A stretch of DNA of 58,273 nucleotides, counting the filler, from Candidatus Desantisbacteria bacterium CG1_02_49_89 (GTDB taxonomy: Bacteria; Desantisbacteria; UBA1551), in NCBI GenBank assembly GCA_001871075.1. It is 3 parts of 3 records of this genome, joined end to end, with 100 filler letters (N's around TTAATTAATTAA, not from the genome) between each part and the next. Parts side by side here need not be neighbours in the genome. Positions count along the whole stretch, not along the records: positions 1 to 26,830 come from MNUP01000083.1; 2 more parts are not named here. One strand, 5' to 3'. The notes beneath the pieces were generated by a model. That model saw only the letters and a program-made list of their open reading frames with translations. It was not told where the DNA came from and did no database searches. Below are positions 11,453 to 57,331 of the stretch, in pieces (positions within the stretch are counted from its first letter, which is position 1; each line of letters opens with the position of its first letter). Position numbers and translations under genes: made by a program.

Positions 11453-11748
11453 CGTTCATCGTGCATCGCCCTGGCGGGTCGCGCATCGTCAAAAATAACC
11501 ACAGAGGCACAGAGGCACGGAGAAAAATTTCCACGAAAGCACTCCGCCCGTCTTCCAGCGGGCGAGACTTCGCCCACCTGAAAGGATGGGTGAGGAAACC
11601 ACGAAGGCACGAATGATTCAACTTCTTCCTCTCCCTTGACGGGAGAGGAAAGAGGTGAGGGTGGATTAAGCGTAACTCAGGGCTTTTCGAAGACCCGCCA
11701 ATCTTTAAGGAGGGAGCCCTGATTAATTGAAAATACGAGGAGCATCCC

Positions 11749-13883: not shown

Positions 13884-14091
13884 AATCAAGAAAGAAATGC
13901 GGGAGCTTGCAAGATCATCCAGACTCCGGGAAGATATGAGATATGTAGCAGAGGGCAGGCACAATCCGTTTTTCGTAGATGGTAAAACGGACATGAACCG
14001 CCTGATCGAATTCCTGACAGAGTCAAACGCGTTTATAAACCATAAGCGCCGGCCTTTCCGCCGCATTAAAGATAAGATCATGAAATTATAA
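13870..14091 (+). CDS. Small hypothetical protein coupled to the nucleotidyltransferase (possible TA partner)
   Basis: 73-aa ORF overlapping the upstream stop; GAGG RBS. Confidence 0.65.
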   Translation: MLSAEIKKEMRELARSSRLREDMRYVAEGRHNPFFVDGKTDMNRLIEFLTESNAFINHKRRPFRRIKDKIMKL

Positions 14092-14201
14092 TTTTGTTTT
14101 ACTAAAGACCACCCGTATTTACCGCAAACGTTTGTTTTTCGGATTTAGCAGTTCCTTGTAAACTTGTAAACTTATAAACTCTGCAAACTGTTTATTTTTA
14201 C

Positions 14202-14319
14202 GAAATCGGGGCGTAGCCCGCCCAGCAAGATTGGCGGGTAAACTCCTCAAAAGTGGAATTGTCATAATTCGGGAAATCGGGGCGTAGCCCGCCCAGCAAG
14301 ATTGGCGGGTAAACTCCTC
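14202..14319 (+). repeat. Two 47-bp direct repeats, each made of the tRNA-Pro 5' end plus a CCCGCCCAGCAAGATTGGCGGG palindrome
   Basis: GAAATCGGGGCGTAGCCCGCCCAGCAAGATTGGCGGGTAAACTCCTC at 14202-14248 and 14273-14319. Confidence 0.9.
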
Positions 14320-14383
14320 CTGTTTAGCGCACACGCTTACGGCGGGTAAACTGTAAAAGTGGAATAATCGTTAATCAGTGAAT

Positions 14384-14457
14384 CGGGGCGTAGCGCAGCC
14401 TGGTAGCGCACACGCTTGGGGTGCGTGGGGTCATGGGTTCAAATCCCGTCGCCCCGA
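14384..14457 (+). tRNA. tRNA-Pro (anticodon GGG), CCA not encoded
   Basis: Acceptor stem CGGGGCG/CGCCCCG-A, D arm GCGC-AGCCTGGTA-GCGC, anticodon arm CACGC-TT GGG GT-GCGTG, T loop GGTTCAAATCC. Confidence 0.95.
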
Positions 14458-14895
14458 TTGATTTTCTGCTTTGCAGAAAATCTGGAGTCCCGATGTTACA
14501 TCGGGACGGTCTATTGCTCAATTTTCTATTTTCGGAAAGATTTGTCGCCACTTCGGCGACCCGCCGATGAGGCGGGAAGCCAACTTTCGCGCATCCATAC
14601 GGATGAAAAGCCCGAAGGGCGTCAGCGAAAGTGGCCGGCTTCGGATGGTGAGTGGTCCGACGAATAAGTCGGACCGAGTTACGAACGCCACCGAGATGGT
14701 GAGGTGGCCGGGCGAGCAGAGCGACGAGGGAGAAGAAATCCTCCGTCGCCTCGATTGATTTTCTGCTTTGCAGAAAATCTGGAGTCCCGATGTTACATCG
14801 GGACGGTCTATTGCTCAATTTTCTATTTTCGGAAAGATTTGTCGCCACTTCGGCGACCCGCCGATGAGGCGGGAAGCCAACTTTCGCGCATCCAT
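14446..14895 (+). repeat. 153-bp direct repeat starting in the tRNA 3' end (14446-14598 and 14743-14895)
   Basis: Near-identical copies 297 bp apart. The second copy is preceded by AAATCCTCCGTCGCCTCGA, a variant of the tRNA 3' end AAATCCCGTCGCCCCGA. Confidence 0.9.
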
Positions 14896-14930
14896 TATTA
14901 AAAATAGAAAAAACAAGCATCTAGGAAAAA

Positions 14931-15562
14931 ATGATAATTTTAGGAATTATTTTTATTATAATTGGTTTAATACTTATTCAATGGCATGGTAGAAATTATC
15001 TAAATCGTGGAAAAAGACCCTTTTCAATTGTTAATTCCTCGATTTTTAATTGGTTTTTTTAATAATTGAGAATGTTATAATTATTAGCGGTTTTATACTT
15101 ATTTTTAGATCTTCTATTTTAGCTGGATTCATTATTTTAGGTATATATTTGTTTATTTTTATTTGGATGCAAATAGGCGGTAGTACAAAATCAACGAGAA
15201 AGACAATGCTGAGTGCATATATTAATATAAAAAAAGCGAATCCTCTTAAAGAAGAGTTAAATGAAAATAAAAAAGAAGAACATGAAAAAGAAATTTTATT
15301 TTTAACATTAGTATCAAGATTTCGTATTGCACGATGGTACAACAATGATATTTCTATCACTAACCATATTTTAAAAGGAATGGTCAATGAATGCCCTAAT
15401 ATAGATGACCTGAGTAATTTTGTTATACTTTTTGAATTTAATGAAAACCCTGGAATGGATATTATGGATATTCAGGAAGTATTTGAAAAAACACAATATG
15501 AATTTTATAAGATAAAGAAAGCCGGTATTAATATAGAGGATTATATAAAAAAGCTTGAATAA
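14931..15562 (+). pseudogene. AT-rich membrane protein gene split by a frameshift at the T7 run 15054-15060 (may be a sequencing error)
   Basis: ATG 14931 reads MIILGIIFIIIGLILIQWHG...FNWFF* and continues in the -1 frame as LIIENVIIISGFILIF (ORF 15050-15562). One extra T fuses them. Confidence 0.6.
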
Positions 15563-15642
15563 TAAGCAAAAAAGTAAAAACAAATGAAAATTGGTAAGTT
15601 CAATATTGCAAATCTTAATAAATTCTTAAAGAGGTGATTATG

Positions 15643-16857
15643 ATGAAAAACCCAATTTTTATTTCAGAATTAATTCTAAAAAGGTTCAGAAGCATTCTTT
15701 CTGCTAAAATCCCTTTTGAAAATCTAACTTTTTTAGTCGGTAGAAATGGAGCTGGGAAAAGTAACATTGTAGATATATTTCAATTCCTTTCTGACTTAAT
15801 GACTGTCCCTTTAAAAGCAGCTCTTGATACACGCGGAGGATTAGATGCAGTTCGTCATAGAAGTTCTCAAAGAGGTTATCCTGCTAGTATGGGTTTAAGA
15901 TTAAATTTTACTATACCTATGTCAAATAATATTAAAAAAAAAGGAATGTATGCTTTTGAAATAAAAGCACTTCCTAAACACCAATTTGAGGTAGTTAGAG
16001 AACAATGTAGATTAGAAGGAAATCAAGAATTTGAATGGTTTGATCGCCACGTTACTTCTTTTTCATCGAGTTTGGGACTTAAACCTTCACTTGATCCCCA
16101 ATCCCTTGTTTTACCTATTATTGGTGGCACTTTTGAATTTATGCCAGTTCTAAAATCAATAGCTTCTATGCAGGTTTATTCTATTGTGCCTTCTCAAATA
16201 CGTGAGCTTCAATCTCCAGATAGCGGGCTAAGGTTGCAATCAGACGGAAGTAATATAACTAGTGTATTGCAGGAGCTACAAAGATCACACGAAGATGTAT
16301 TTAAAAACTTGGGTGAATTATTAAAAGCAGTAGTTCCTGGAATAAATAGCGTTCGTACTAAAAAGCATGCAAAAAAGTTATCTTTAGAATTTACACAATC
16401 ATGGAGTAATGGAAAAAATGGGCAAAAAAGCAAAGAGATAAAATTTGAATCTTTTTCAATGTCAGACGGAACTCTTAGGGCAATCGGTGTTTTGACTGCT
16501 CTTTTACAACAACCGATTCCGTCACTTATAGTAATAGAAGAACCAGAAGCAACTATTCATCCAGGTGCTCTCGGAGCACTTATGGATGGCGTTCGAACTT
16601 CATCAAGAAATACACAGATTATTTTAACAACTCATTGCCCAGAAATACTTGATTTTAAATGGCTTAATCCAGATCAAATTAGAGTTGTTGATTGGCAAAA
16701 GGGAGCTACGCAAGTCTATAAACCATCTCAAGCTGCTATCGAATCGGTAAGGAATAATTTAATGGGATTAGGTGATCTTATGAGGAGCGGTATTTTAGAA
16801 AGTGGCAATGAGCTTTTTGAACCGCATATAGCTCAACTTAATTTATTTGAGGATTAA
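15643..16857 (+). CDS. ABC-type ATPase (AAA_21/AAA_15-like)
   Basis: Walker A GRNGAGKS, signature MSDGTLR, Walker B IVIEEPE, H-loop TTHCP; low GC. Confidence 0.9.
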   Translation: MKNPIFISELILKRFRSILSAKIPFENLTFLVGRNGAGKSNIVDIFQFLSDLMTVPLKAALDTRGGLDAVRHRSSQRGYPASMGLRLNFTIPMSNNIKKKGMYAFEIKALPKHQFEVVREQCRLEGNQEFEWFDRHVTSFSSSLGLKPSLDPQSLVLPIIGGTFEFMPVLKSIASMQVYSIVPSQIRELQSPDSGLRLQSDGSNITSVLQELQRSHEDVFKNLGELLKAVVPGINSVRTKKHAKKLSLEFTQSWSNGKNGQKSKEIKFESFSMSDGTLRAIGVLTALLQQPIPSLIVIEEPEATIHPGALGALMDGVRTSSRNTQIILTTHCPEILDFKWLNPDQIRVVDWQKGATQVYKPSQAAIESVRNNLMGLGDLMRSGILESGNELFEPHIAQLNLFED

Positions 16858-16859
16858 AA

Positions 16860-17519
16860 ATGGAGCCATTAATAATTCAACCCATAGTTGAAGGACATGG
16901 TGAAGTAGATTCCGTAGGGATTCTTTTAAGAAGAATGCTTGCTGAAATTCAAATATATAATGTTTTTATAAAGAGACCAATGCGTTGGCCCAAAAGCAAA
17001 CTTATAAATGTTGAGGAATTAAAAAAACGAGTTCAGCTAGCAAATATAAATTTGGGTGCAGCAAACAAAAAAGCTATTATTATAATATTCGATGCTGATG
17101 ATGATTGTCCACGTGATTTGGTAAACAGACTTTTGGGACCAGTAAAAGTTGTTGCGGGAAACACACCTTGTACAATTATAATAGCAAAACATGAATATGA
17201 ATCTTGGTTTTTAGGTTGCATAGAAAGCTTGCGAGGAAAAAGATCAATTAATACCGATGCAACCTTTAATGAGGATCCTGAAAATATTAGTGGGGCAAAA
17301 GGTCGTTTAGAGGAGATGATGAATCGTTCTTATCAGGAGACAACCGATCAAGCAGCACTTACTGCGCAAATGAATTTTGAGAACTGTTATCAAAATTGTC
17401 GGTCTTTTCGTAAATTGGCGAAAGATATTTTCGTAATAGTTCGTGATTTAGGATACGTTTATTTTACAGAAACTAATTGGGGAAATTTAATTGCTAACGA
17501 GATAAGAAATAATGTATAA
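16860..17519 (+). CDS. DUF4276-like (TOPRIM-like) protein
   Basis: IVEGHGE, DADDDCP, EYESWFL, DPE...AK, YQETTDQ and CRSFRK motifs; directly after the ATPase. Confidence 0.8.
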   Translation: MEPLIIQPIVEGHGEVDSVGILLRRMLAEIQIYNVFIKRPMRWPKSKLINVEELKKRVQLANINLGAANKKAIIIIFDADDDCPRDLVNRLLGPVKVVAGNTPCTIIIAKHEYESWFLGCIESLRGKRSINTDATFNEDPENISGAKGRLEEMMNRSYQETTDQAALTAQMNFENCYQNCRSFRKLAKDIFVIVRDLGYVYFTETNWGNLIANEIRNNV

Positions 17520-18072
17520 TAGACTTAAAGAAGCTTTTAATTGTTTGAATAAAGAATATAGAAATAATCACTTTAGTCCAATTATCGAAGATGATTTTCT
17601 GGCAAGAATTTATTATCATATCTTAAAACATAATAAGGAACTTAACTCTAAAATATTTTTAAAAACTCGAATTTTTCAAAATATACCGCAATTAAGAAAA
17701 AATAAATATGATTTAGTTGTTGGCGAAAGAATAGAAAATAGAAATGAAGTATATGTGGAACCAGATCTTGTTGCTGAATTTAAAATATTCCCCGTTGGTT
17801 TTAGCTCATCAATACTTAGCAAAAGGCGAAATCAATCAGCCGAAGATATCTCGAAATTAAATGATATTTTTACATATTCTCACAACAAAACATGTCTAGT
17901 TTTTTGTTTTTTTGATGTTATAGGATGGCTAAAAGGTTCTAATCAAATAGATAATAATACACGTCTAGAAAAGTTAATAGAATTTCGCGATTCAATTAAC
18001 TCATCAATTAAAATATTGGGAATATCTGCTATCAACAAAGATGATAAAAGAACCCAAATTATAGAATTTTAA
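17512..18072 (+). CDS. Hypothetical protein, possible PD-(D/E)XK nuclease
   Basis: IIEDDF, KYDLVV...AEFK and DISKL pattern; overlaps the upstream gene; very AT-rich. Confidence 0.55.
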   Translation: MYNRLKEAFNCLNKEYRNNHFSPIIEDDFLARIYYHILKHNKELNSKIFLKTRIFQNIPQLRKNKYDLVVGERIENRNEVYVEPDLVAEFKIFPVGFSSSILSKRRNQSAEDISKLNDIFTYSHNKTCLVFCFFDVIGWLKGSNQIDNNTRLEKLIEFRDSINSSIKILGISAINKDDKRTQIIEF

Positions 18073-29314: not shown

Positions 29315-29502
29315 TCATCATCCTCCTTTAAACTCAAATTATGAGTTATGAATTATGGAATTCGAAAGCATTCTGCAAAACCACACGAGAATGTTGCCCG
29401 AAGGGCAAAATTATAAATCAGGGCTAAAGCCCTGAGTTACAATAAACACCCTTGCAGTTGATTCATAATTCAGCATTCATAATTCATAATTAATTACCTG
29501 TA

Positions 29503-37823: not shown

Positions 37824-38963
37824 ATGGGAAATGTTTTAAAAAAGCAAAATTATTCGAGGCTTGTTGCTGAACTCGCTTCGTTGATTGAACAGGGGCGCAG
37901 GGTAGCGGTGCGGTATGTAAATACCGCCTTGGTGGCAACCTATTGGCTGATGGGTAGGAGGATTGTTGAGTATGAGCAGAAGGGCAAGGAACGGGCGGAA
38001 TATGGGGAGAAATTGCTGAGAAAGATATCTCATGATTTGACTCCGCGATTTGGGAAAGGCTTTACCGAAAGGAATCTTGAACATATGCGCCAGTTCTACC
38101 TTATTTATTCAGAGATTTCGCACACAGTGTGTGCGAAATTGCTAAAAAGGACAGAAAAGAAATCGCACACAGTGTGTGCCGAATTGATTCCAATATCCCA
38201 GACAGTGTCTGGGATTTCCGAAATACTGTCTCGGAAATTTCCACTATCGTGGTCTCATTATCGCCTGATTATGCGGCTTGAAGAAGCCTTCAAGCGCGAA
38301 TTCTATGAAGCAGAATGCGTCCGTGGCAACTGGTCAGTAAGGCAATTGGACAGGCAGATTCAATCTATGCTATACGAAAGGACCGCGCTATCCAAACGCA
38401 AGCTTGCAGTAATTGCAAAAGCCCACGAAAGACCAATAATCCTTAAGCCCGAAGATGAAATTAAAGATCCCTATGTCCTGGAATTTCTTAATCTAAAAGA
38501 TGAATATTCGGAAACACAATTAGAAGAAGCTCTAATCAGGTATCTTGAGCACTTCCTTCTTGAGTTGGGAGTCGGTTTTGCTTTTGTCGCGCGGCAGAAA
38601 AGGATTACGCTTGAAGGCAGCCATTACCGGCTTGACCTCCTTCTCTATCACCGGATTCTGCGATGCCTTGTGGCAATAGACTTAAAAATCGGCGAGTTCA
38701 CTCACTCGGATGCCGGGCAGATGAATCTTTATCTGAATTATCTGAAAGACAAGGAAAGATTTTCAGAAGAAAATGACCCGATAGGCATTATTCTTTGCAC
38801 GGATAAAAAGAAAACAGTTGTTGAATACGCGCTGGGCGGGATGAACAACAGAATATTTGCTTCAAAGTATAAACTGCAGCTACCCGACCCCGAGACCTTA
38901 AAATCAAAAATAGAGCACGAAAAGCAAAGACTTTTGGAAATGAAAATTGTCAAAGCAAGATAG
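37824..38963 (+). CDS. YhcG/DUF1016-family PD-(D/E)XK nuclease protein
   Basis: YWLMGRRIVE, LSWSHY, WSVRQLDRQI, KDPYVLEFL, FLLELG.GF, DLK and GQMNLY motifs. Confidence 0.92.
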   Translation: MGNVLKKQNYSRLVAELASLIEQGRRVAVRYVNTALVATYWLMGRRIVEYEQKGKERAEYGEKLLRKISHDLTPRFGKGFTERNLEHMRQFYLIYSEISHTVCAKLLKRTEKKSHTVCAELIPISQTVSGISEILSRKFPLSWSHYRLIMRLEEAFKREFYEAECVRGNWSVRQLDRQIQSMLYERTALSKRKLAVIAKAHERPIILKPEDEIKDPYVLEFLNLKDEYSETQLEEALIRYLEHFLLELGVGFAFVARQKRITLEGSHYRLDLLLYHRILRCLVAIDLKIGEFTHSDAGQMNLYLNYLKDKERFSEENDPIGIILCTDKKKTVVEYALGGMNNRIFASKYKLQLPDPETLKSKIEHEKQRLLEMKIVKAR

Positions 38964-39182
38964 ATTGCTTCACTATGTTCGCAATGACAGAATGAGCCCC
39001 CTCACTTTAATTCTCTCCCACACTGGGGAGAGAGAAATTGATTCAATGGCATCAGGGCTGAAGCCCTGAGTTACGCCTCTGTGTCTCCGTGCCGTGCCCG
39101 CCAATCTTCAAGGCGTGGTCTCTGTGGGTAATTTTTCTACGATGAACGATGCACGACGAACGATGAACGAGAAGGAGTTGCT

Positions 39183-40136
39183 ATGACGCCCAAAGAGCGT
39201 TTCAAGATCGCGCTGGAATGCAAGCCGCCGCCAAAAGGCCGCGTGCCCCATTTTGAGCTGGTGTTTTTCCTGACCATGGAGGCGTTTGGCAAGGTCCACC
39301 CTTCCCACCGCAGCTTTCACCAGTGGGACCAGATGAGCGAGACAGAAAGGCAGGTCCAGAGGGAGGATATGGCTGACATCTACGTGAAGACAGCTGAACG
39401 TTACGAGCACTCCGCCATATTCCTGCACCCCAATCCCGGAAGCTTTGAAGAGGTCTGCCGGCTCATTGACATCGTGAAGGAAAAAACCAACGATAAATAC
39501 ATGATCATGATCCACGGCGGAGCCACCTACGGGATCCCAAACGGAACCGAAATGGCGAATTTTTCATACTGGCTTGCCGATAAGCCTGACGAAGCGAAAA
39601 AGAACGCGGATACCATGGTCAACAACGCACTTGACACGGCCGCGAAATATAAAAAGCACGGCGGGCTGGACTGTTTCGCTATGTGCACGGACTACTGCCT
39701 TAACACAGGCCCGTTCCTCAGCCCAGGCCAGTTCTCGGAATTCGTGACCCCATACCTTATCAAGCTTGTAAAAGGATATAGGGATATGGGTTTTTACACC
39801 ATAATGCACACGGACGGCAATATTATGCCTATACTTGACCAGCTTGCGCAATCAAAACCTCACGCTTTGCAGTCGCTTGACCCGCAGGCAAAGGTTGATA
39901 TAAAGGAAGTAAAAAAGCTCGTGGGTGACAGGATATGCCTTATAGGGAACGTGAATTGCGGCCTGCTTCAGACAGGCACGGATGAACAGGTCATCGAGTC
40001 AGCAAGATACTGCCTGAAACACGGGATGCCGGGCGGCGGGTACGTATTCTCCACAAGCAACTGCGTTTACACCGGAATGGCGCTGAAGCGGTACGAGCTT
40101 ATTTTGGATGTCTGGCGCAAAAAAGGCAACTACTAA
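39183..40136 (+). CDS. Uroporphyrinogen decarboxylase/methyltransferase-superfamily protein
   Basis: HTDGNI, IGNVNC and GGGYVFSTSN motifs. Confidence 0.85.
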   Translation: MTPKERFKIALECKPPPKGRVPHFELVFFLTMEAFGKVHPSHRSFHQWDQMSETERQVQREDMADIYVKTAERYEHSAIFLHPNPGSFEEVCRLIDIVKEKTNDKYMIMIHGGATYGIPNGTEMANFSYWLADKPDEAKKNADTMVNNALDTAAKYKKHGGLDCFAMCTDYCLNTGPFLSPGQFSEFVTPYLIKLVKGYRDMGFYTIMHTDGNIMPILDQLAQSKPHALQSLDPQAKVDIKEVKKLVGDRICLIGNVNCGLLQTGTDEQVIESARYCLKHGMPGGGYVFSTSNCVYTGMALKRYELILDVWRKKGNY

Positions 40137-40303
40137 AGGATTAACCACGGAGGCACGGAGGCACAGAGAATTCTTCGGCTTTTACAAATGACAAATGACT
40201 AATGACTGCCCTTTAACCACGAATTAACTCGAATTGTTTGCTTCGCAACATTCTTTGTGGGTTACGTCGATAAACGACGAATTGCACGAATTTTGAATTC
40301 CAG

Positions 40304-41328
40304 TTTTAAAATAAATTCCTTGCTGTTGCGTTGACACGTTGATACGCTGACACGTTGACACGTTTTGAAAAAGGAGGCAGCAATGAAAGTCGGATTAAGC
40401 AGCTACAGCTTGATACAGGCGATAAACGCGAAGGAGATGGACCTGCCGGGCGCGGTGGCGTGGATAAAGGAGAACGGCGGCGAGCACGTGGAGATAGCGT
40501 ATGACATCTTTGACCAGCCGCAGATGGCGGAAACGCTGAAGAAGAAGGCGAAGGACGTGGGGATAGATATTTCAAGTTACACGATAGGCGCCGGGTTCCT
40601 GCAGGCGAATAAGGAAGATTTTGAAAAGGAAGTAGCAAGGGTGAAAAAGCAGGTGGACATAGCCGCGGCGATGGGGGTTAAGCTTATGCGCCACGACGCG
40701 GCGTCCAGGCCGCCCAACGAGTGCGTGATCGAGCAGTTTGACAAAGACCTGCCCCAGATAGTTGACGGTTGCGGCAAGGTCGCGGACTACGCGAAACAGT
40801 TCGGCATCACGACAAGCGTTGAGAACCACGGGTATTTCATGCAGGCAAGCGATAGAATAAGGCTGCTTGTCAAAAAAGTCAACAGGGAAAATTTCAGGAC
40901 AACCCTGGACGCGGGGAATTTCATGTGCGTTGACGAGGACCCGATAGCCGCGACAAAGAACAACATATCCATCGCTTCCCACGTTCACTTCAAGGATTTC
41001 TATTTCAGGCCCGCTCACGCGAATCCCGGAGAGGGCTGGTTCCCCACCCTGCACGGCAATTTCCTGAGAGGCTCGATCGTGGGCCAGGGAGACATCGACA
41101 TAAGGACGGTTCTTAAGATCATAAAGGATTCCGGGTACAACGGATGCCTGTCAATCGAGTTCGAGGGCTTAGAAGAATGCAAGATGGGCTCAAGGGCGGG
41201 AATGGCGTTCGTTAAGAAGGCTCTGGCTGAGATATAAATAAGTCCACAGTCCACGGTCCACCGTTTAAAGCGTGTCAACGTATCAACGTATCAACGTGTC
41301 AGAGCAAAAACAAGGAATTTATTTAAAA
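40304..41328. repeat. About 65-bp inverted repeat pair (40304-40370 / 41264-41328) bracketing the isomerase gene
   Basis: TTTTAAAATAAATTCCTTG...(TGACACGT)n...GAAA versus its near-exact reverse complement after the stop. Confidence 0.9.
40383..41237 (+). CDS. Sugar phosphate isomerase/epimerase
   Basis: MRHD, VENHG, LDAGNF, HFKDF and SIEFEG motifs. Confidence 0.88.
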   Translation: MKVGLSSYSLIQAINAKEMDLPGAVAWIKENGGEHVEIAYDIFDQPQMAETLKKKAKDVGIDISSYTIGAGFLQANKEDFEKEVARVKKQVDIAAAMGVKLMRHDAASRPPNECVIEQFDKDLPQIVDGCGKVADYAKQFGITTSVENHGYFMQASDRIRLLVKKVNRENFRTTLDAGNFMCVDEDPIAATKNNISIASHVHFKDFYFRPAHANPGEGWFPTLHGNFLRGSIVGQGDIDIRTVLKIIKDSGYNGCLSIEFEGLEECKMGSRAGMAFVKKALAEI

Positions 41329-41421
41329 CCTCAGTGAATTCAGCGGTAAAATCGGTATTTATCCGTATGCATCCGTATTTTCTAATCCGTATGCATCCGC
41401 GAACACAAAAGGAGAAGAACA

Positions 41422-42522
41422 ATGGAGAAGATCAAGATTGGGGTGATAGGGTGCGGGAACATAAGCCCTATTTATTTCACGAACCTGAAAAAGTTTGATT
41501 TTCTGCAGGTCGCGGCGTGTTCGGACCTGCTGATCGAAAGGGCGAAGGCAAGGGCGAATGAGTATAAGATACCGAAGGCTTGCAGCGTGAAAGAACTGCT
41601 GGCTGACCCGGAGATCAAGGTAGTGCTGAACCTTACAATACCCATTGTCCACGCTGAAGTTGACCTCCAGATACTGACAGCGGGTAAGCACTCATACGCG
41701 GAAAAACCGCTTGCCGCGAACCGTAATGACGGCAAAAAGGTAATGAGCGAGGCAAAAAAGAGGAGCCTGCGCGTAGGCTCTGCGCCTGACACGTTTCTTG
41801 GCGGGGGCATCCAGACCTGCAGGAAGCTCATCGATGACGGTTTTATAGGGAAACCTGTTGCCGGAACATCTTTTATGCTCTGCCACGGCCACGAGACCTG
41901 GCACCCTGACCCGGACTTCTACTACCAGAAAGGCGGAGGCCCGATGTTCGATATGGGCCCCTATTACCTGACAGCGCTTATCAACCTGCTGGGACCGGTA
42001 AAGCGGGTCGCGGCGTCAACAAAAATGACTTTTCCTGAGCGGCTTATCACCAGCCAGCCGAAAAATGGGACCATTATAAAGGTAAACACTACAACCCATC
42101 TTGCGGGAGTTATGGATTTCGCGAACGGAGCCATTGTTTCAATGATAACCAGCTTCGACGTCTGGTCAGCAGGCCTTCCGTGCATAGAAATATACGGGAC
42201 AGAAGGTTGTATCAGGGTGCCTGACCCCAACGGTTTCGGCGGGCCGGTGGTCGTTTTCAAGAAGGGCTCAAAAGCGTGGGCTGAAACTCCCCTTTCCCAT
42301 GGCTACTCTGAGAACAGCCGGGGTCTGGGTGTCGCGGATATGGCAAAAGCGATTATCTCCGAAAGGAAGCACAGGGCGAGCGGTGACATGGCATTCCACG
42401 TGCTTGACATAATGCAGTCTTATGACGAATCCTCGGATGCAGGCAGGCATATTGAGATCAAGAGCACGTGCGAGCGCCCCCAGGCATTGCCAGCGGGATT
42501 GGGGTTCGGCCAAGTCGATTAA
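41422..42522 (+). CDS. Gfo/Idh/MocA family oxidoreductase
   Basis: GVIGCGNIS, EKP, APDTFLG and DMGPYY motifs. Confidence 0.9.
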   Translation: MEKIKIGVIGCGNISPIYFTNLKKFDFLQVAACSDLLIERAKARANEYKIPKACSVKELLADPEIKVVLNLTIPIVHAEVDLQILTAGKHSYAEKPLAANRNDGKKVMSEAKKRSLRVGSAPDTFLGGGIQTCRKLIDDGFIGKPVAGTSFMLCHGHETWHPDPDFYYQKGGGPMFDMGPYYLTALINLLGPVKRVAASTKMTFPERLITSQPKNGTIIKVNTTTHLAGVMDFANGAIVSMITSFDVWSAGLPCIEIYGTEGCIRVPDPNGFGGPVVVFKKGSKAWAETPLSHGYSENSRGLGVADMAKAIISERKHRASGDMAFHVLDIMQSYDESSDAGRHIEIKSTCERPQALPAGLGFGQVD

Positions 42523-42636
42523 AAACATTTCAAATTTCAAATTGCAAATTTCAAATTGCAAATTTAATCCCTTGAACTTCGGAACCTTTTTAACATCCAG
42601 CATTTAGCATCCAGCATCCAGCAAATAAAGGGAAAC

Positions 42637-43434
42637 ATGGAACGCATACCTGTGTTATTATGGGAAAAAGACGCGCCCGGAGCAACGGGCACAGGGCCTG
42701 AAGACTGCCCGCGGCTTACTTCCTATCTCTTGAAAACCGGCAAGCCGGACAGCGTGGTAATAGTCTGCCCGGGCGGAGGGTATGCTGCAAGGGCTGACCA
42801 CGAAAAAGAACCGATCTCTTTATGGCTGAACTCAATAGGCGTTTCAAGTTTTGTGCTGGACTACAGGGTCGCGCCTTATAAGTATCCTGTGCAGCTGTGG
42901 GACGCGCAAAGGGCCGTAAGGCTGGTCCGCCACAAAGCTAAGGAGTTCAATATTGACCCGAACCGCGTTGGAATGCTGGGTTTTTCAGCCGCAGGCCATC
43001 TTACGTCAATGCTTGGCACTCATTTTGACAGCGGAAAAAAGGATGACCCTGACCCGGTTGAAAGGCAGAGCTGCAGGCCTGACCTGATGATCCTGTGCTA
43101 CCCGGTCATTTCAGCCGGGCAATTCATTGAGCCGGGTTCTTTTTCAAACCTTCTCGGCGAGAAAGCCACAAAGGATTTGCTGGATTCCATTTCAAGCGAG
43201 AAACAGGTGACTGCAGACACCCCTCCCGCGTTTATATGGCATACCCGGGACGACCAGGCTGTGTCGGTCGAGAACTCCATTCTTTTTGCGGAAGCTCTTA
43301 AAAAATTCAATGTCGCTTATGAATTGCATATTTTTGAGAGCGGTCCGCACGGCCTTGGACTTGCAAGCGATAACCCAAGTGTAAGCGCCTGGACAAAGTT
43401 ATGTGAAAAATGGCTCAAAAAGCAAAATTTCTAG
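42637..43434 (+). CDS. Alpha/beta hydrolase (carbohydrate esterase-like)
   Basis: CPGGGY, GFSAAGH nucleophile elbow, D and HGLG catalytic motifs. Confidence 0.88.
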   Translation: MERIPVLLWEKDAPGATGTGPEDCPRLTSYLLKTGKPDSVVIVCPGGGYAARADHEKEPISLWLNSIGVSSFVLDYRVAPYKYPVQLWDAQRAVRLVRHKAKEFNIDPNRVGMLGFSAAGHLTSMLGTHFDSGKKDDPDPVERQSCRPDLMILCYPVISAGQFIEPGSFSNLLGEKATKDLLDSISSEKQVTADTPPAFIWHTRDDQAVSVENSILFAEALKKFNVAYELHIFESGPHGLGLASDNPSVSAWTKLCEKWLKKQNF

Positions 43435-43574
43435 CAGTCTGCATCTGTAACTCAGGACTTTTCGAAGACCCGCCAATTCTTAAGGTGGGAGTCCTGAGAA
43501 TCTCAAACCTAAAGGTTTGAGTTACTCAAAACAGTGTTTACCTGTGTTAACCTGTGGTAGAAAAGGAGGTTTTA

Positions 43575-44743
43575 ATGCCGGAATTTTATTTAAAGGACAA
43601 ACTCGACTTCGCCGCGCACAATGAGGAAGTTTCGAAGGTCCTGGACGCCTATAATAAAGGAACGCCAACCCGGGTACCTGTGCAGTTATCAATGAACCCC
43701 AGGATGATACTGCTGAATCCCGAGCTTAACACAAAAGGAATTACCTGGAAGCAATATTTCGAAAAACCCGACACGCGCTGGGAAGTGGACCTGCAATTCC
43801 AGAAATGGGTAAGGTTCAACGTCATGCAGGATGTTGAGATGGGCTTTCCGCAGAAGGAATGGGGCGGCATAGGAGTAGGATATTCAAACTGCGACGAAGC
43901 AGCTTGGTTCGGCTGCCCTATCGTGTATCCGAAGAGCGATATGCCGTTCATTGAGCCAATACTGAAAGAAAATAAAAAAAACTTTATGACATACCAAACC
44001 CAGCGCCTTTTGACAGCCCTATTATGAGAAAATCGATCGAGGACCACGAGTACCTGGAAGAAAAGCGTAAAAAGACGGAATTTGAAGGAAAGCCGGTTGG
44101 CAGGGGAAGCATATTCGGGGGCGGGACAGACGGCCCCCTTACGATCGCCTGCAATCTTCGAGGAGCAAGCGAAGTCGCGATGGATTTTTATGAGGACCCC
44201 AAATACACGCACAACCTACTGTCTTTTATAACAGATTCGGTGATAGCAAGGATAAAAAAGGTATATGAATATATGAAGATAGAATATCCCGGGCAGGGCT
44301 GGGGATTCGCGGACGACAGCGTAGAGCTTATCTCTACCGAAATGTATAAGGAGTTCATCCTTCCCTACCATAAAAAATTACTGGCCGAATTCTCAAAAGG
44401 CGGGCCGAACGGCATTCACCTGTGCGGCAAAGTGCAGAGGCATATGAAGTTCCTGAGAGATGAAATAAACATAAAGACCTTTGACCTGGGTTTTCCCACG
44501 GATATGGGAAAAGCCAGGGCTGAACTGGGGGAAGACGTGCTTTTGATCGGCAACATCGCGCCGCACCTGCTGAAACTTGGGCCTGAGCAGGCGATTATAG
44601 ACGCTGTAAAGGACCTGTGCGGGTCAGGAGTGATGAAGGGCGGGAAGTTCATCCTGCACGACGGCAACAACTGCGCCCCGCTTACGCCGGTAAGCCACTT
44701 CCGGGCGATGTATGAGGCGGGGAAGCAGTATGGGATATACTGA
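43575..44743 (+). pseudogene. UroD-superfamily protein split by a frameshift at the A8 run 43974-43981 (may be a sequencing error)
   Basis: ILKENKK continues in the -1 frame as LYDIPNPAPFDSPIMRK into ORF 44024-44743 (GPLTIA, ADD, IHLCG, GNI). Confidence 0.75.
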
Positions 44744-44773
44744 AGTTAAAGGTGAAAAGTTGAAGGTTAAAGG

Positions 44774-45970
44774 TTGAAAACTATACTGCTTACTATATTT
44801 TTAATTGGGGTGGGTTTAAATACCGGAGTTACAGCGGAAGGAGCAAAATTGGAGCAAAAGACAGAGGAGTTTTTTCCTATAGGGGTGTGGTTTGAGGGAG
44901 CTCCGGGACCGGCTGAATATCCTGCTGACAAGGCAGGCGCGAAGAAATATTATGACCGCTGTTTCGCAGACCTTGCCGCTCACGGGTTTAACTGCGTTGC
45001 TGTGCCGAACTGCCCTGAATCTTTGTGGCAGACGCTCCTGGAGTCAGCGCAGGAGAACAAAATAAAAGTCATTCTCGAGGTCAGACCGCTTGTGGAACTT
45101 ATCTGCCGGGACAAACCCTTGAAAGAAACGGAAGTTTACAAGACCGTGAAAAGAGTTGTTGATAAGATAGGCAATTACTCTTCCCTTCTGCGGTACCAGG
45201 TCAGGGATGAACCCCCTCCTGAGCAGGTCCAAAACTGGCTTGTGGTCAGGAACGCGCTCGAAGAGATCGACCCGTCCCGCCCCGCGTTCTCCTGTTTCTG
45301 CAACCCGGATTCTCTGAAGGCCGCGACTGACGCCGCTAAATTCTCCGAAACATGTTTTGATATCTACCCGCATTACGCGAAAGTGCCTGCGCAGACCCTG
45401 GGTAATTTCATAGAATTGCTTTATAAATTCAAAAGGGCGTCCAGGGATAATGCGATGTGGGCGGTGCTGCAGTCCTTTGCCAAGCCTGAAGCGTGGCGGT
45501 ATCCTTCGCCTGAGGAACTGCGAGCAGTGACATATTTGTCTATTGCGGCAGGAGCAAAAGGTATTTTCTATTTCCTTTACCAGACAATGCCGAAGCATTC
45601 AGAAGTGCTTGACGGGCTTATTAACGTTGACGGCAGCCCAAGGCCATTATATTCCACGGCTGAAACGCTCGCGCGCGAGCTCGGAAAGCTTGCCCCGCTC
45701 TTGATGTCTCTGAAGCCTGCGGAACAGACGGCTGAAATTTCCGGGCCTGCCCGCGCAGGCAGTTTTAAGGACCCGAATGGCAATCCTGTTTTGATAGTGG
45801 CAAGCGCGCGGCCCGGTGAGGGTGTGACCGTGACCGTGAGCGTGACGACGCTTGAAACAGGAAGCTGGAAGGACGCGCTGACCGGCGAGGTATTTTCCGC
45901 CAAGAACGGAGAACTCGCGATCCCGCTCGCTCCCGGCGCCGGCCGAGTCCTCAAAAGCACAAAAGATTAA
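44774..45970 (+). CDS. Secreted hypothetical glycoside-hydrolase-like TIM-barrel protein
   Basis: Signal peptide; FFPIGVW, GFNCV, RDEP, DIYP and GAKGIFYF motifs. Confidence 0.65.
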   Translation: MKTILLTIFLIGVGLNTGVTAEGAKLEQKTEEFFPIGVWFEGAPGPAEYPADKAGAKKYYDRCFADLAAHGFNCVAVPNCPESLWQTLLESAQENKIKVILEVRPLVELICRDKPLKETEVYKTVKRVVDKIGNYSSLLRYQVRDEPPPEQVQNWLVVRNALEEIDPSRPAFSCFCNPDSLKAATDAAKFSETCFDIYPHYAKVPAQTLGNFIELLYKFKRASRDNAMWAVLQSFAKPEAWRYPSPEELRAVTYLSIAAGAKGIFYFLYQTMPKHSEVLDGLINVDGSPRPLYSTAETLARELGKLAPLLMSLKPAEQTAEISGPARAGSFKDPNGNPVLIVASARPGEGVTVTVSVTTLETGSWKDALTGEVFSAKNGELAIPLAPGAGRVLKSTKD

Positions 45971-46508
45971 CCACGGAGGCACGGAGACACAGAGGAATAT
46001 TTGGCTCATATTAAAAACTTACCACGGAAGCGCGGAAAGACGGAAACACGGAGAATTCTTCGGCTTTTACAAATGACTAATGACTGTTTTTTTAACCACG
46101 GATTAGCACGGATTTCCACGGATAAGAACCTTTTGGGAACTGTAATAGAGCCCTAGGAGTAGAGCACTGGGAGTAAACCCTTTAGGGTCGTTTAAACGGG
46201 GCTCCCTCCTTAAGGACTGGCGGGTCTTCGAAAAGCCCTCCGAAGAGTCCGTATACTCCGTCCTTTCGGAGTCATCGGACCTACTCCTAAATAATTTCCA
46301 CGAAAGCCCTCTGCTGCTCCGAAGAACTTGTAGCAAAACGCGAGGACCTCCGGGTCAGAACTGAGCTAATGACCCTACGGCACTGAAGGCACAGAGACAC
46401 AGGGAAATCTTTTCTGGTTTCAAACTTGACACTTGATACTTGGCTCTTGATACTTAAGATAATCACCGTAATCGCAGTTGAAAATCACCGTAATCAAAAG
46501 GAGTCAAA

Positions 46509-47507
46509 GTGATAAGATTTGGCCAGATCGGGGTCGGAGGGGAAGGCACTATATACACGCCGATAATAGCGGAAAATCCCGCGTGCAGGCTTGCAGCGGT
46601 GTGCGACATCAACAAGGAAGTCCTTGACAGGGTTGCCGGGGAACGGAAGGCGAATGCTTACACGGATTTCAGGGAAATGATAGAGAAGGAAGACCTGGAT
46701 GCGGTTGCCATAATCCTCCCCCACTATCTTTATCCTGAGGCAGTGGGGCTTGCCGCGAAAAAGAACCTTCACATCCTGCAGGAAAAGCCGTTCGCGAGGA
46801 ACCTGCCAGACGCGAAAAAGATAGTCAAAGCGCTGAAAGGCTACAAAGGAATATACATGCTGAGCGCGCAGAGGAAATACAGCCCTGCTTTCCAGAAGGC
46901 GAAAGAGATAATAAAGAGCGGCAGCATCGGGAAAGTCCAGCTTATCGAGGCGTACGCGCAATACAGGTTTACCAGGACTTCTGAGTCTTTCGGGTGGAGG
47001 ACGAAAAAGAAGCTTTCCGGAGGGCTTGCTATAATTGATTTCGGGTGGCATATGCTTGACACGATATACTGGATAAAGGGCATGCCTTCAAGGGTTTACG
47101 CGAATACCTGCGGCATAAAAGCGCTTGAGGGAAAGAACGACATAGACGAAACCGCGAACATAATACTTGAATACGCGGACGGTTCATCAGCGGTGGTGCT
47201 GACCTCTATTACCTCCATCGGCAGGTGCTGGGAGTTCACATTTCAGTGCACCAAGGGTACAATAAAATTCTCGCCCTGCTTAGTTGAAACCTATGACAAG
47301 GAAAAACTGATTGAAAAGCTGGATATCACGAAAACAGAGCCTGAAATGTTCGCGGCGCAGTTCAACGTATTCCTGAACGCGGTGCAGACAGGGAAAAAAC
47401 CGCTGACAGGCCCAGCGTACGGCCTGAACCTTTCCCGCATCGCCGAGGCCGCGTACCGGTCAGCTTCGTCCGGCAAGCCAGTGCTCCTTAAAAACTTAAC
47501 TGGTTAA
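46509..47507 (+). CDS. Gfo/Idh/MocA family oxidoreductase
   Basis: Rossmann start, EKP and GG..IDFGWH motifs; AGGAG RBS. Confidence 0.88.
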   Translation: MIRFGQIGVGGEGTIYTPIIAENPACRLAAVCDINKEVLDRVAGERKANAYTDFREMIEKEDLDAVAIILPHYLYPEAVGLAAKKNLHILQEKPFARNLPDAKKIVKALKGYKGIYMLSAQRKYSPAFQKAKEIIKSGSIGKVQLIEAYAQYRFTRTSESFGWRTKKKLSGGLAIIDFGWHMLDTIYWIKGMPSRVYANTCGIKALEGKNDIDETANIILEYADGSSAVVLTSITSIGRCWEFTFQCTKGTIKFSPCLVETYDKEKLIEKLDITKTEPEMFAAQFNVFLNAVQTGKKPLTGPAYGLNLSRIAEAAYRSASSGKPVLLKNLTG

Positions 47508-47618
47508 AAGGGTTAAAGGGGTTAAAAAGGTTAAAAGTTGAAAGCTTATGCCCGAGCTTACAAGCTAACAAGCTTATAAGTTTACAAGCAAGTTTGATTT
47601 AAAAAGAGTACTTTGATT

Positions 47619-48533
47619 ATGAGCAAAAACAAAAAGATAGCTTATTTTATATTGTTGGAAATATTGGCAATTATTTTTGCTTACTTTCCATCAATGTTGT
47701 TTAAATTAGAAGCAGAAAGTTTTAAATTTAACCATATTTTATCAATTATTTATGTGCTAATACCATATATTAGTTTCATGCTGCTTCCTTTAATAATATT
47801 TGTTTTAGGATTTGCAAGAAAATTAGATAAATTCTTAACTGCAATAGCTTTAATTCTATTTATTTTATGGCTTGCGTTTATAGCATATTTAGTCTTTGCT
47901 TGTAACAAAGGCTTTTCGCCAATTATTTTCTCCTTCTTGACAGCCCTCCCTGCTGCGGTTTTTTTTGGCGGAGCAAGTATAATAGGTTATTTATCAAACC
48001 AATTAAGAAAATCTTCTGAAAAAGATATGAAAGAGGAACCATTAATAAAAGAATTTAGTATCTATGAGATAAATTCTAAGGAGAATTTACTAGATATACA
48101 AGGCTATCTTCATGATGCAAAATGTAATGATAATGAGATTAAATATGATACAGAAAGCGGAAAGATCGACATCATTTTTGACAGGCAAGGTTTAGGGGAT
48201 TCTTTCAATAAAAAAATTAAAACTGACTTTATACTTTTTCAAATATTTGAATACCCAATTGTTAGAAGCCTTCTTCACCTGGAAGACATATCTTCCTGCA
48301 AACTAACTCCTACAGCTAAAAATATAAAGGTTCATACTTTTGATGGAATTCGGTTTGAGAACGATAAATACCGCCTTTATTTTTACTGGTTAACAATGGA
48401 TATAGATTTTAAAACATCACCCAAGGGATTCCTGAAGGATTTGGAATTAAGTAAAGATAAGATCGGCAGATATACTGGTTTTAAATACGTCTTTCCATTC
48501 GGAAGCTACACAGTGAAGCGTATTAAAAAATAG
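47619..48533 (+). CDS. AT-rich hypothetical protein, four N-terminal TM segments plus a soluble domain
   Basis: About 304-aa ORF with markedly lower GC than its neighbours. Confidence 0.7.
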   Translation: MSKNKKIAYFILLEILAIIFAYFPSMLFKLEAESFKFNHILSIIYVLIPYISFMLLPLIIFVLGFARKLDKFLTAIALILFILWLAFIAYLVFACNKGFSPIIFSFLTALPAAVFFGGASIIGYLSNQLRKSSEKDMKEEPLIKEFSIYEINSKENLLDIQGYLHDAKCNDNEIKYDTESGKIDIIFDRQGLGDSFNKKIKTDFILFQIFEYPIVRSLLHLEDISSCKLTPTAKNIKVHTFDGIRFENDKYRLYFYWLTMDIDFKTSPKGFLKDLELSKDKIGRYTGFKYVFPFGSYTVKRIKK

Positions 48534-48720
48534 TCTACTATTTCATTTCGTGCTTTCGTCCGTAGCGCCATCCGCTCAGCTCTGGCGCGCAGGCCCCTGC
48601 GTTGAGCTGCGCAGCAGCTGCAGGGGGCACTTTCGTGCTTTCGTGGAAATCCTTTACACCGTAATCTCTTAGATAATCACTGTAATCATTTTTAAATAAT
48701 CACTGTAATCAGGGGGCTCA

Positions 48721-50670: not shown

Positions 50671-50929
50671 GAATTTCCACGAAAGAAGCTTTTTACAGGG
50701 ATCTTCGAAAGAGATTTAAAAAACCAAGCTATAGATTCACAAGATTTCCACGAAATCACGAAAGTGTCACGAAATCACGAAAGAATAACCACGGAGGCAC
50801 GGAGATTACAGTTTTAACTTGACACTTGATACTTAGCTTGCCCGCCAATCTTGCTGGGCGGGACTCTTGACACTTAAAATAATCACTGTAATCGTCAGTT
50901 CGAAAATCACCGTAATCAAGGAGTGAAGG

Positions 50930-52105: not shown

Positions 52106-52256
52106 TAGCCATAAGGACATTGCAAAAGTCAAATTGTAAATTGCAAATTTTAAATTTAAGTCACGGGATCCCATAATTTTACAATTTACATTTTGCAATT
52201 TGAAATTTGAAATGAATTCTGCCGACGTATCTCTCAAATATTATTTAGGAGGCTGA

Positions 52257-53336: not shown

Positions 53337-53725
53337 TAAAGTTAAAGGGGTTAAAAAGGTTAAAAGGGTTAAAAGTTAAATCCGTGCGAATCCGTGGAAA
53401 TCCGTGGTTGCAGAAGCAGCCATTTTTAAAAAGCTAAAAACTTATAAGGTAGTCTCCCGCCACTTCGGCGGGTCGCCGTAGGGGCGACAGTGAATTCAGT
53501 GAACTCAGTGGCAAATTTTTAAAGCAGTTTATAGAGTTTACAAGTTTACAAGTAAAATTCGTGCAAATTAGTGCCGTAGGGTCATCGATTCGGTTCTGAC
53601 CCGAAGGCCCCAGCGTTACGGTTTCGTAGAAACCTGCAGGGGTTAATTCGTGGTTAAAGTGAATTTTTTCGTGCTTTCGTGGTACTTTCGTGCTTTCGTG
53701 GAAATCTTTAGTTGTGGGGGTTGAT

Positions 53726-56170: not shown

Positions 56171-56271
56171 TCACCACAGAATTTAACCACAGGTCAATAC
56201 AGGTAAACACTGTTTTGAGTAACTCAAACCTTCTCGAAGACCCGCCAATCTTTAAGGAGGGAGGTTTGATA

Positions 56272-57308
56272 TCAGGGCTGAAGCCCTGAGTTACAATAAA
56301 ATTCCATGCCGTTGATTCATAACTCATAATTCATAACTCATAATTATATTTAGCGGAGCAGCGATGAAGGCGATATCGTTCGGCGAAGTGCTTTGGGACA
56401 TAATCGAGGGAAAGGAATACCTTGGCGGCGCCCCTTTTAACCTTGCCGCGCACCTCGCGAAGCTGGGATGCAGTTCCCGGATGATCTCAAGGGTCGGTGA
56501 GGACGAGCGCGGCAGCAAGGTGCTTGAAGAAATGAAACACCTTGGCGTGGACCCCTCTTTCATGCAGAAGGACAAGGACCACCCAACAGGCACGGTCAAC
56601 GTCAGGCTTTCATTCGCAGGCGAGCCGGAGTTCACCATAAACAAGAACGCGGCTTATGATTTCATAGAGTTTGATAAAAAGCTTGAAGCCGGGATAAAAG
56701 AAGAAAAATTCGACGCATTCTGCTTCGGCACCCTTGCGCAGAGGAGCGATGTCACTAAAAAAACGCTTTACACCCTTCTGGGCAGCGTGAACTCAAACCT
56801 GTTCTTCTACGACGTGAACCTGCGCCAGAAATATTATTCCAAAGAGATCATTAATAAGTCCCTTTCAGTTTCAGGCATAGTGAAGCTTAACGATGACGAG
56901 GCAAAGGTCCTGCCTGAGATCGTTTTCAATAAGAAAATGGATGAAAAGGAATTCGCAACAGAGCTGTGCCGCGGATACCGGGTAAAGATCGTGTGCGTAA
57001 CAAGGGGCGGGAACGGGTGCGCTGTATATTCGGGCGGTGAATTCAGGGAGATCCCGGGCATAAAGGTGAAGGTCATAGACACGGTCGGCTCAGGTGACGC
57101 TTTCAGCGCTGGTTTCCTTTTCAAGCACTGCTCAGGCAAAGACCCGTTTGAAGCCGCGGAATTCGCCAACAGGCTGGGCGCGTTCGTCGCCTCAAAGCGC
57201 GGCGCGATACCGGACTACGACCTTAATTATGAATTATGAGTTATGCCCCTCGGGGCATTATGAATCAACGGCAAGGATATTTATTGTAACTCAGGGCTTT
57301 AGCCCTGA
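56272..57308. repeat. About 75-85-bp inverted repeat pair (56272-56346 / 57224-57308) bracketing the PfkB gene
   Basis: TCAGGGCTGAAGCCCTGAGTTACAATAAA...GCCGTTGATTCATAACTCATAATTCATAA versus its reverse complement, which carries an extra 17-nt hairpin. Confidence 0.9.
56364..57239 (+). CDS. PfkB-family carbohydrate kinase (fructokinase-like)
   Basis: GGAPFN, DVNLR, KLNDDE and DTVGSGDAF motifs. Confidence 0.92.
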   Translation: MKAISFGEVLWDIIEGKEYLGGAPFNLAAHLAKLGCSSRMISRVGEDERGSKVLEEMKHLGVDPSFMQKDKDHPTGTVNVRLSFAGEPEFTINKNAAYDFIEFDKKLEAGIKEEKFDAFCFGTLAQRSDVTKKTLYTLLGSVNSNLFFYDVNLRQKYYSKEIINKSLSVSGIVKLNDDEAKVLPEIVFNKKMDEKEFATELCRGYRVKIVCVTRGGNGCAVYSGGEFREIPGIKVKVIDTVGSGDAFSAGFLFKHCSGKDPFEAAEFANRLGAFVASKRGAIPDYDLNYEL

Positions 57309-57331
57309 ATACGAATATATAAGTGGTTTAG

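Follow-up and report, generated by a model that had tools for sequence, protein, structure and literature searches.

How does a segment of only 28 bases come to lie, with exact ends and in one orientation, in the loops of hairpins whose stems differ from copy to copy? The question is raised by a stretch of 58 273 nucleotides (hereafter the window) from the genome of Candidatus Desantisbacteria bacterium CG1_02_49_89 (G000), which joins at scaffold level three contigs of a 2.48-Mb assembly (GCA_001871075.1; 150 contigs, completeness 93.5%). A preliminary description of the window, made from the sequence alone, had noticed four copies of a 28-base segment (the 28-mer) between the arms of repetitive extragenic palindromic (REP) hairpins, as well as empty hairpins of the same kind, and had proposed a minimal non-autonomous element that targets REP loops by independent insertions. 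We find that the 28-mer is very probably a discrete unit that is inserted or excised at REP loops on its own, because one orthologous pair of REPs differs by exactly 28 bases and because one type of REP doublet occurs with neither, one or the other of its REPs filled. The best explanation overall, which we hold with moderate confidence, is that of a non-coding micro-element, composed of a tail and a hairpin, that is moved singly into TTYA loops by a trans-acting enzyme, possibly of the Y1/HUH type.

Exact boundaries and a fixed target

A pattern search and a reading of the sequence bore out the four places given for the 28-mer (with zero, three, two and zero mismatches, in order along the window; Table 1), its position in each case between the arms of a hairpin (GGGCT/AGCCC, GGACT/AGTCC, GGGCT/AGCCC(C) and AACCT/AGGTT) and the lack of a target duplication; the five hairpins described as empty are present as well. 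Chance repetition was rejected as the origin of these copies, as no match to the 28-mer was obtained in any of 100 dinucleotide-preserving shuffles. The left flank of the window copies ends in CTTT or CTTC and the right flank begins with AG, without duplication of the flanking bases; the hosts are GTAR-headed REP hairpins with a TTYA loop that the insert interrupts after the third loop base. A filled REP (window 11672-11722, GTAACTCAGGGCTTTTCGAAGACCCGCCAATCTTTAAGGAGGGAGCCCTGA) thus differs from an empty one (window 57286-57308, GTAACTCAGGGCTTTAGCCCTGA) by exactly 28 bases. These boundaries are unique: if the frame were moved a single base, the empty loops should read CTTGAG, but only a handful of 237 empty hairpins have a G there.

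The same arrangement recurs throughout the genome, where a fuzzy search that allowed at most five substitutions returned 35 copies of the 28-mer. A covariance model built on 23 aligned copies gave 74 matches, 68 of them to the full model and six to only the hairpin core of 21–25 bases. Empty REPs are more numerous: 211 hairpins have the form of a perfect 5-bp stem around CTTYAG (237 if any base is accepted at Y), and the ratio of empty to filled REPs is about 3 : 1. Junction and flank statistics come from the 39 simple copies whose flanks are 60 bases or longer. All 39 have AG directly after the insert, and before it stands CTTT (28 copies) or CTTC (11 copies). Among the 741 pairs that these copies form, seven have only the upstream outer flank in common, eight only the downstream one and none both, which means that the copies did not arise by duplication of a single composite locus. 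Common extended flanks and random boundaries, the two patterns that the preliminary description had set against its own reading, are thus both the opposite of what the copies display.

Orientation is equally strict, in that no reversed insert was found in the loop of a head-strand REP anywhere in the genome. The inserts have neither target duplications nor terminal inverted repeats, and a miniature inverted-repeat transposable element was rejected on this account, the ends TCGAAGA and GGAGGG not being inverted repeats of each other. A second kind of host has the loop TTGAC, which is empty in the window (Table 1) and filled after TTG in two copies elsewhere (contigs C61 and C30). Searches of the genome for a circle or tandem junction, in which the 3′ end of the 28-mer would meet its 5′ end, gave only chance-like matches apart from one tandem pair of a related variant on contig C65. 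There, near position 4729, two copies stand head to tail, with the tail as in the 28-mer and a different hairpin. Although 13 of 47 filled copies fell inside an open reading frame (ORF), these should not be taken as intragenic, our ORF calls being crude (stop to stop, at least 100 amino acids).

Presence and absence of the 28-mer in otherwise matching hosts

That the 28-mer comes and goes independently of the hairpins around it can be seen at several levels. Between populations, the metagenome contig L037 is about 85–90% identical to contig C80 of the genome, next to a gene resembling those of REP-associated tyrosine transposases (RAYTs). L037 carries the 28-mer in a GTAGCC-headed REP at a place where C80 has an empty REP, and the alignment gap is exactly 28 bases long. 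Within the genome, a 105-base tandem duplication (C109:11640-11900) holds an empty REP in one copy and a filled REP in the other. Finally, one type of REP doublet, present at 20 distinct loci, has neither REP filled at 11 of them, REP A filled at six and REP B filled at three; the insert in REP B lies on the head strand of B itself, and its orientation therefore follows the REP and not the locus.

Host and insert also differ in how they vary. In the alignment of 23 copies, five of seven host stem pairs change on both sides, while four of the six pairs of the insert stem are invariant, and one rare variant of the insert is present in two different host stems or families. Composites spread too, as a filled doublet with one rare insert variant recurs at different loci (C71 and L056). 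With the many host stems that are filled, the orthologous 28-base difference, the C109 duplication and the fill states of the doublet all support the proposal of a minimal non-autonomous element that enters REP loops by independent insertions.

The region is present in 24 groundwater or aquifer DNA runs, all in the form of Logan contigs. A scan of metagenome contigs yielded 53 loci, about two-thirds of them near-identical to this genome. For positions 38300-58273 of the window, the assembled contigs of four runs break at the repeats (43516, 46206, 56228 and 56317), so that neither presence nor absence is visible there. Larger tandem duplications vary as well: the metagenome contig L029 is without the second copy of the 105-base duplication of C109, and a 376-base tandem duplication on C3, which bears a filled REP, is single in the metagenome contig L043.

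Anatomy of the insert

The insert begins with a tail of seven bases (TCGAAGA), followed by a 6-bp stem in which CCCGCC pairs with GGAGGG around a variable loop of 9–11 bases; the hairpin is flush with the 3′ end of the element. Among 48 copies collected by a regular expression, a few of them off-family, the first stem pair is C-G in 34 and T-A in eight, a compensatory change, and the fourth is G.A in 34, G.T in seven and G-C in seven. Support from covariation is modest, because the T-A copies may represent a single sub-lineage. In the predicted fold of the composite as single-stranded DNA, the insert stem is stacked on the host stem and the tail forms a nine-base bulge, with z-scores of −2.2 to −4.2 in three of the four window copies. 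The 28-mer taken alone is predicted to fold no better than its shuffles (z = −0.69). The GAAG of the tail is complementary to the CTTY that stands just before the insert, and one of the predicted folds uses this pairing.

REP hosts and their RAYT genes

The host hairpins have a GTAG-like head, a short perfect palindrome, a small loop, a high copy number and inverted doublets, and are true REPs with cognate RAYTs. An empty REP of 23 nt folds with −6.7 kcal/mol (z = −3.5). The empty hairpins fall into the stem families CAGGG (86), CAAAC (50), CAAGG (21), GCAGG (19), CAAGC (10), GCAAC (9) and CAGAC (8), and the heads are GTACT-type variants (GTAACT, GTAGGG, GTAGCC). Filled copies were found in the stems CAGGG, CAAAC, CAAGC, CAAGG, CAGAC, CAGGA and GCAAC and in a GGGGC-type family, and so span at least seven host stems and three heads; of 39 filled copies, 29 carry a GTAR head within 17 bases upstream of the insert. 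Where the flanking ORFs are co-directional, the head strand is the sense strand in 25 filled REPs against three, and in 109 empty REPs against 37. Heptamer words in tandem (of the CATAACT/CATAATT type) directly adjoin REPs at window positions 56310-56350 and 29450-29480, and likewise adjoin several filled REPs elsewhere.

The preliminary description had pointed to HUH transposases as candidates worth identifying, and the genome does encode them. It has 10 Y1_Tnp matches, and two ORFs of 160 amino acids on contig C23 scored 99.7 and 94.7 bits on the NCBIfam model REP_Tyr_transpos (NF047646), above its cut-off of 80 bits; an H-L-H motif can be read in their translations, as can a tyrosine that precedes an NP motif. 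Arrays of the host REPs flank each C23 gene on either side. Three REPs beside them are filled, and one filled REP overlaps a RAYT stop codon. A third RAYT gene (C111:7531-8076; 99.8 bits on the same model) has arrays of another hairpin repeat around it, and the genome therefore houses several REP/RAYT systems.

Relatives of the C23 RAYTs occur in many phyla, at 38–58% identity. GTAR-headed hairpins surround them at 73 of 80 kept loci (L081-L160), with loops that, in the examples shown, nearly always read CTTTAG or CTTCAG, and in two Deltaproteobacteria metagenome-assembled genomes (MAGs) the REP stem and loop are letter for letter those of this genome. In an unrelated MAG (L088:1010-1790), the REPs on both sides of the RAYT gene hold a different insert, of 30 bases with two hairpins, at the same position in the loop; an empty REP lies beside the filled ones, and the RAYT stop codon lies within a GTAG head. 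Two further RAYT loci (L155 and L160) are weaker candidates for loop inserts. A RAYT of Marinomonas, whose REP has a TTTA loop, requires loop bases one, two and four for activity, and the third is free; RAYTs cleave CT or CA dinucleotides on the 5′ or the 3′ side of the hairpin, guided by the GTAG head (Corneloup et al., 2021, PMC8266576). By these loop rules, the 28-mer sits inside the conserved recognition loop, beside its one free position.

How the 28-mer may move

As the 28-mer encodes nothing, an enzyme acting in trans must move it. In the mechanism that we favour, the REP would be extruded as a single-stranded DNA hairpin, and a Y1/HUH enzyme of the genome, the prime suspects being the RAYTs flanked by these REPs, would nick the exposed loop and join the folded 28-mer into it; a filled REP or REP doublet could, in addition, spread as a composite. 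That insertion takes place into single-stranded folded DNA and by a Y1/HUH enzyme is a tentative proposal, which we make because it fits the target at the tip of a hairpin, the fixed orientation, the lack of duplication, the exact ends, the hairpin of the element itself and the HUH genes among the hosts. The preliminary description had likewise invoked HUH chemistry; the genes are indeed present and adjacent to the hosts, while the chemistry is still a matter of conjecture, given how the 28-mer departs from IS200/IS605 elements and from published RAYT activity. A more specific version is doubtful in our view, namely that the 28-mer is a guide-directed HUH micro-transposon with a single hairpin, the smallest of its kind, for which a RAYT or other Y1 enzyme would nick after TTY under guide pairing of GAAG with CTTY, in the manner of IS200/IS605 guide sequences, and for which the REP loops of this RAYT clade would be a general landing pad across phyla. 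If it were true, it would explain how elements of the cyanobacterial small dispersed repeat (SDR) type move.

Several observations weigh against movement by an HUH enzyme, or at least against parts of it. The element has one hairpin, as against the two subterminal hairpins at the ends of IS200/IS605. No autonomous parent with the ends of the 28-mer was found in the genome, where the longer inserts that start with its tail are nested, non-coding micro-elements and where the sole IS200-like gene (on C83) has unrelated hairpins at its flanks. Published RAYT cleavage lies outside the hairpin (PMC8266576), and an insert in the recognition loop might spoil recognition instead of resulting from it. 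Copies with an altered tail (TCGTAGA, TCGCAGA) still stand after CTTT and no covariation of tail and target was seen, so that the complementarity of GAAG and CTTY is a lead only. The inserts in doublets use both strands, and their orientation is thus not tied to the replication strand. The difference at L037/C80 could be an insertion or a precise loss, and two neighbouring bases differ there too. Lastly, the genome contains a fragment of a reverse transcriptase gene, which makes a route through RNA possible.

Two rival explanations concern the route of spread. The 28-mer could pass among REPs with no dedicated enzyme, either by copy-choice, in which the template is switched at a stalled hairpin, or by gene conversion over short patches, using microhomology of loop and stem. 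All hosts do have CTTY and AG in common and many share CA..C stems, one filled REP (on C18) combines the head of one family with the tail of another, and a conversion patch could account for the two bases that differ beside the L037/C80 insert. Yet the junctions of all 39 simple copies are exact in spite of their differing stems, and a return switch would have no more than two shared bases to rest on; filled REPs do not have mismatched stems more often (8/39) than empty ones do (41/237); and the second kind of host, whose stem is different and whose loop is TTGAC, takes the insert at the corresponding position. We consider this route unlikely. Quite improbable, to our minds, is an RNA intermediate, by which a transcribed hairpin would be reverse-spliced or reverse-transcribed into transcribed REPs. 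Its appeal lies in the preference of filled REPs for the sense strand between co-directional ORFs (25 against 3), in the tolerance of G.T (G.U) at the fourth stem pair and in a match to RVT_1, but the empty REPs have nearly the same strand bias (109 against 37), which accordingly belongs to the host. In doublets the insert is also found on the opposite strand, the one RVT_1 match in the genome consists of one fragment located at the end of a contig, and Rfam gave no match for the 28-mer.

Movement of the 28-mer by itself has also to be weighed against two readings in which it scarcely moves. Insertion might have been very rare, a single event or a few, with nearly all copies being filled REPs or doublets that RAYT copied as composites and whose stems drifted later. 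A filled doublet with one rare variant does occur at several loci (C71, L056), the REPs that flank the RAYT genes are filled, and the family is common to a relative of the same order (G001, see below). Against this, the filled stems and heads match abundant empty families exactly, as drift would not reproduce; a single doublet type occurs in every fill state; an orthologous REP shows the exact indel; and one variant of the insert occupies two host families. We therefore give composite spread alone little chance. Least credible of all is that the filled hairpin is a selected functional module (a protein-binding site, an RNA structure or an end recognized by RAYT) of which the empty REPs are degenerate forms. 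In its favour, hardly any variation is found in the tail TCGAAGA or in either arm, here or in the same-order relative, and RAYT genes have filled REPs as their immediate neighbours in this genome and, with another insert, in L088. However, empty REPs outnumber filled ones by about 3 : 1 and it is the empty form that stands beside related RAYTs in other phyla, the covariance model found no filled form in five genomes with RAYT relatives (with only 150 candidates scored in each), and the 28-mer by itself has no better fold than its shuffles (z = −0.69, as above).

Distribution of the 28-mer

The 28-mer family was found in this genome, in its same-order relative G001 and in groundwater metagenomes only. 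Of the 40 genomes used for comparison, G001 belongs to the same order and the other 39 share only the domain; at up to two mismatches the 28-mer itself was absent from all 40. The covariance model, however, recovered 10 copies from G001 (87% complete), where the REP heads are those of this genome and empty REPs lie next to the filled ones, and none from 11 other genomes. It likewise found no filled form, at an E-value of 0.01 and among only 150 candidates scored per genome, in the five genomes with the closest relatives of the RAYTs. A search with the 28-mer pattern gave no loci in a set of one genome per GTDB species and none in viral contigs. At Rfam gathering thresholds, the whole window yielded a tRNA only, and no family fits the 28-mer.

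Relation to known elements

Eight families of SDRs (SDR1–8), of 21–27 nt, were reportedly described in Nostoc punctiforme and its relatives by Elhai and colleagues in 2008; some are said to form hairpins with compensatory changes and to lie within one another, within heptamer repeats or within small transposons, and an RNA intermediate is said to have been proposed for them. Like the SDRs so described, the 28-mer is tiny and non-coding, forms a hairpin with a compensatory change, is inserted precisely into other repeats, is nested, lies near heptamer arrays and displays evidence of mobility in its presence and absence at orthologous sites. It differs from them in its lineage and sequence family, and in having as its target the TTYA loop of RAYT-type REPs, which connects it with a known HUH system. 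SDR5 is reported to split the HIP1 palindrome precisely after its third base (PMC4390886), and Bertels and Rainey list SDRs among repeats of unexplained origin (PMC3116915). The 28-mer is unlikely to be a Nostoc SDR, judging from the lack of pattern matches in one genome per GTDB species, a set whose cyanobacterial content is unconfirmed.

The hosts resemble published REP/REPIN-RAYT systems in their GTAG-like head, perfect stem of 6–8 bp, inverted doublets and flanked RAYT genes (PMC3116915; PMC8266576; Di Nocera et al., 2013, PMC3733652), and their loop has the form TTNA, as in the REP of Marinomonas. The 28-mer itself is unlike a REP in that it has no GTAG head and lies within a REP loop, and where the closest relatives of the RAYTs occur in other phyla, the REPs next to them lack it.

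Insertion sequences offer further comparisons. IS200/IS605 elements move as single strands by means of the Y1 HUH transposase TnpA. Like them and their miniature derivatives (palindrome-associated transposable elements, PATEs), the 28-mer has a hairpin and a strict orientation, with no terminal inverted repeats or duplication, and like IS200/IS605 it enters immediately after a fixed tetranucleotide, here CTTY; guidance of the cut by four bases on the 5′ side of the hairpin is described in PMC8266576. The 28-mer is nevertheless far smaller than these elements, and sets itself apart by its single hairpin with a flush 3′ arm, by the lack of a parent insertion sequence with the same ends and by the lack of covariation between tail and target. 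IS1397 inserts in the palindromic units (REPs) of Escherichia coli, and ISPpu9 targets REPs of Pseudomonas putida (PMC8450116). Both are kilobase-sized, encode a transposase and make short target duplications. The preferential landing of the 28-mer in REP hairpins recalls these two elements. It departs from them in being non-coding, 28 nt long and free of duplication. Among eukaryotic organelles, the GC clusters of yeast mitochondria and the double-hairpin elements of Allomyces are very small, structured, non-coding and apparently mobile; they are unrelated to the 28-mer in sequence and have no link to REPs or RAYTs.

What is new here is thus the lineage, the sequence family and the target, the loop of a RAYT-type REP; the kind of element is already known from SDRs. 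The 28-mer seems to be among the smallest of mobile DNA elements, of a kind known mainly from cyanobacteria. We found no description of micro-inserts in REP loops in the literature searched, although the supplements of Elhai and colleagues' 2008 paper may bear on the point. Precisely moving elements of 21–28 bases have been on record since 2008, and we know of no mechanism for them. In the present case the target is a defined structure and the cognate HUH enzyme is encoded next door, so that oligonucleotides and a single purified protein would suffice to test the question. Cargo in REP loops, as seen here, bears moreover on population studies of REPs and REPINs, and on gene calling and assembly in repeat-rich uncultivated lineages.

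Table 1. Filled and empty host hairpins and copies of the 28-mer in the window (positions count along the whole window).
Feature	Position	Strand
Empty hairpin of the second host kind, loop TTGAC	11627..11649	+
Host REP 5′ half: GTAACT head, 5′ stem arm, first three loop bases TTT	11672..11686	+
28-nt element, copy 1, consensus form: tail TCGAAGA, 6-bp stem CCCGCC/GGAGGG with G.A at fourth pair, 9-nt loop	11687..11714	+
Last loop base A and 3′ stem arm of host REP	11715..11722	+
Empty REP, stem CAGGG	29418..29440	-
Empty REP, stem CAGGG	39052..39074	-
Host REP 5′ half, stem CAGGA	43447..43461	+
28-nt element, copy 2: three differences, G.T at fourth stem pair	43462..43489	+
Host REP 3′ arm (copy 2)	43490..43498	+
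Empty partner REP, stem CAAAC, inverted; REPIN-like doublet with 43447-43498	43503..43525	-
Host hairpin 3′ arm (copy 3)	46197..46203	-
28-nt element, copy 3: two differences	46204..46231	-
Host hairpin of another REP-like family (GGGGC stem type), 5′ arm and loop TTT	46232..46241	-
Host REP 5′ half, stem CAAAC, loop TTC	56219..56233	+
28-nt element, copy 4, identical to copy 1	56234..56261	+
Host REP 3′ arm (copy 4)	56262..56269	+
Empty partner REP, stem CAGGG, inverted; doublet with 56219-56269	56272..56294	-
Empty REP, stem CAGGG, loop TTTA	57286..57308	+

Nested and related micro-elements

The 28-mer is itself a host. Longer copies, of 53–55 or 70 bases, have a hairpin module of 25, 26 or 42 bases inside the 28-mer, and in one of them yet another element lies inside the nested module; the 26-base module is also found free-standing. 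Other families are polymorphic between near-identical populations, which follows from a comparison of L067:982-1046 with C53:8068-8075, where L067 has 65 extra bases in a heptamer array between flanks that are otherwise identical. The extra segment consists of a hairpin module of 26 or 27 bases, from a family that is also nested in the 28-mer, and a two-hairpin element of 32 bases.

A related family of 25 bases, with a tail of four bases and a similar hairpin, occupies other hairpins of the genome. On a contig of Candidatus Scalindua (L104:2770-2810), a 25-base module lies within another hairpin; it consists of a four-base tail and a hairpin of 21 bases that almost matches the core of the 28-mer. 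The core module may thus be more widespread than the 28-mer itself.

A further two-hairpin family, of 34 bases, is associated with a tRNA locus. The tRNA that Rfam detected at 14384-14457 of the window is followed by two copies of a direct repeat of about 300 bases (all within 14384-14900), each of which begins with an apparent tRNA 3′ end. The 34-base element is present at 14553-14586 and 14850-14883, and copies of this family elsewhere lie inside heptamer arrays. The tRNA locus also marks the beginning of a segment of low G+C content (14001-18000), in which values of 0.33–0.37 compare with 0.44–0.55 in the rest of the window.

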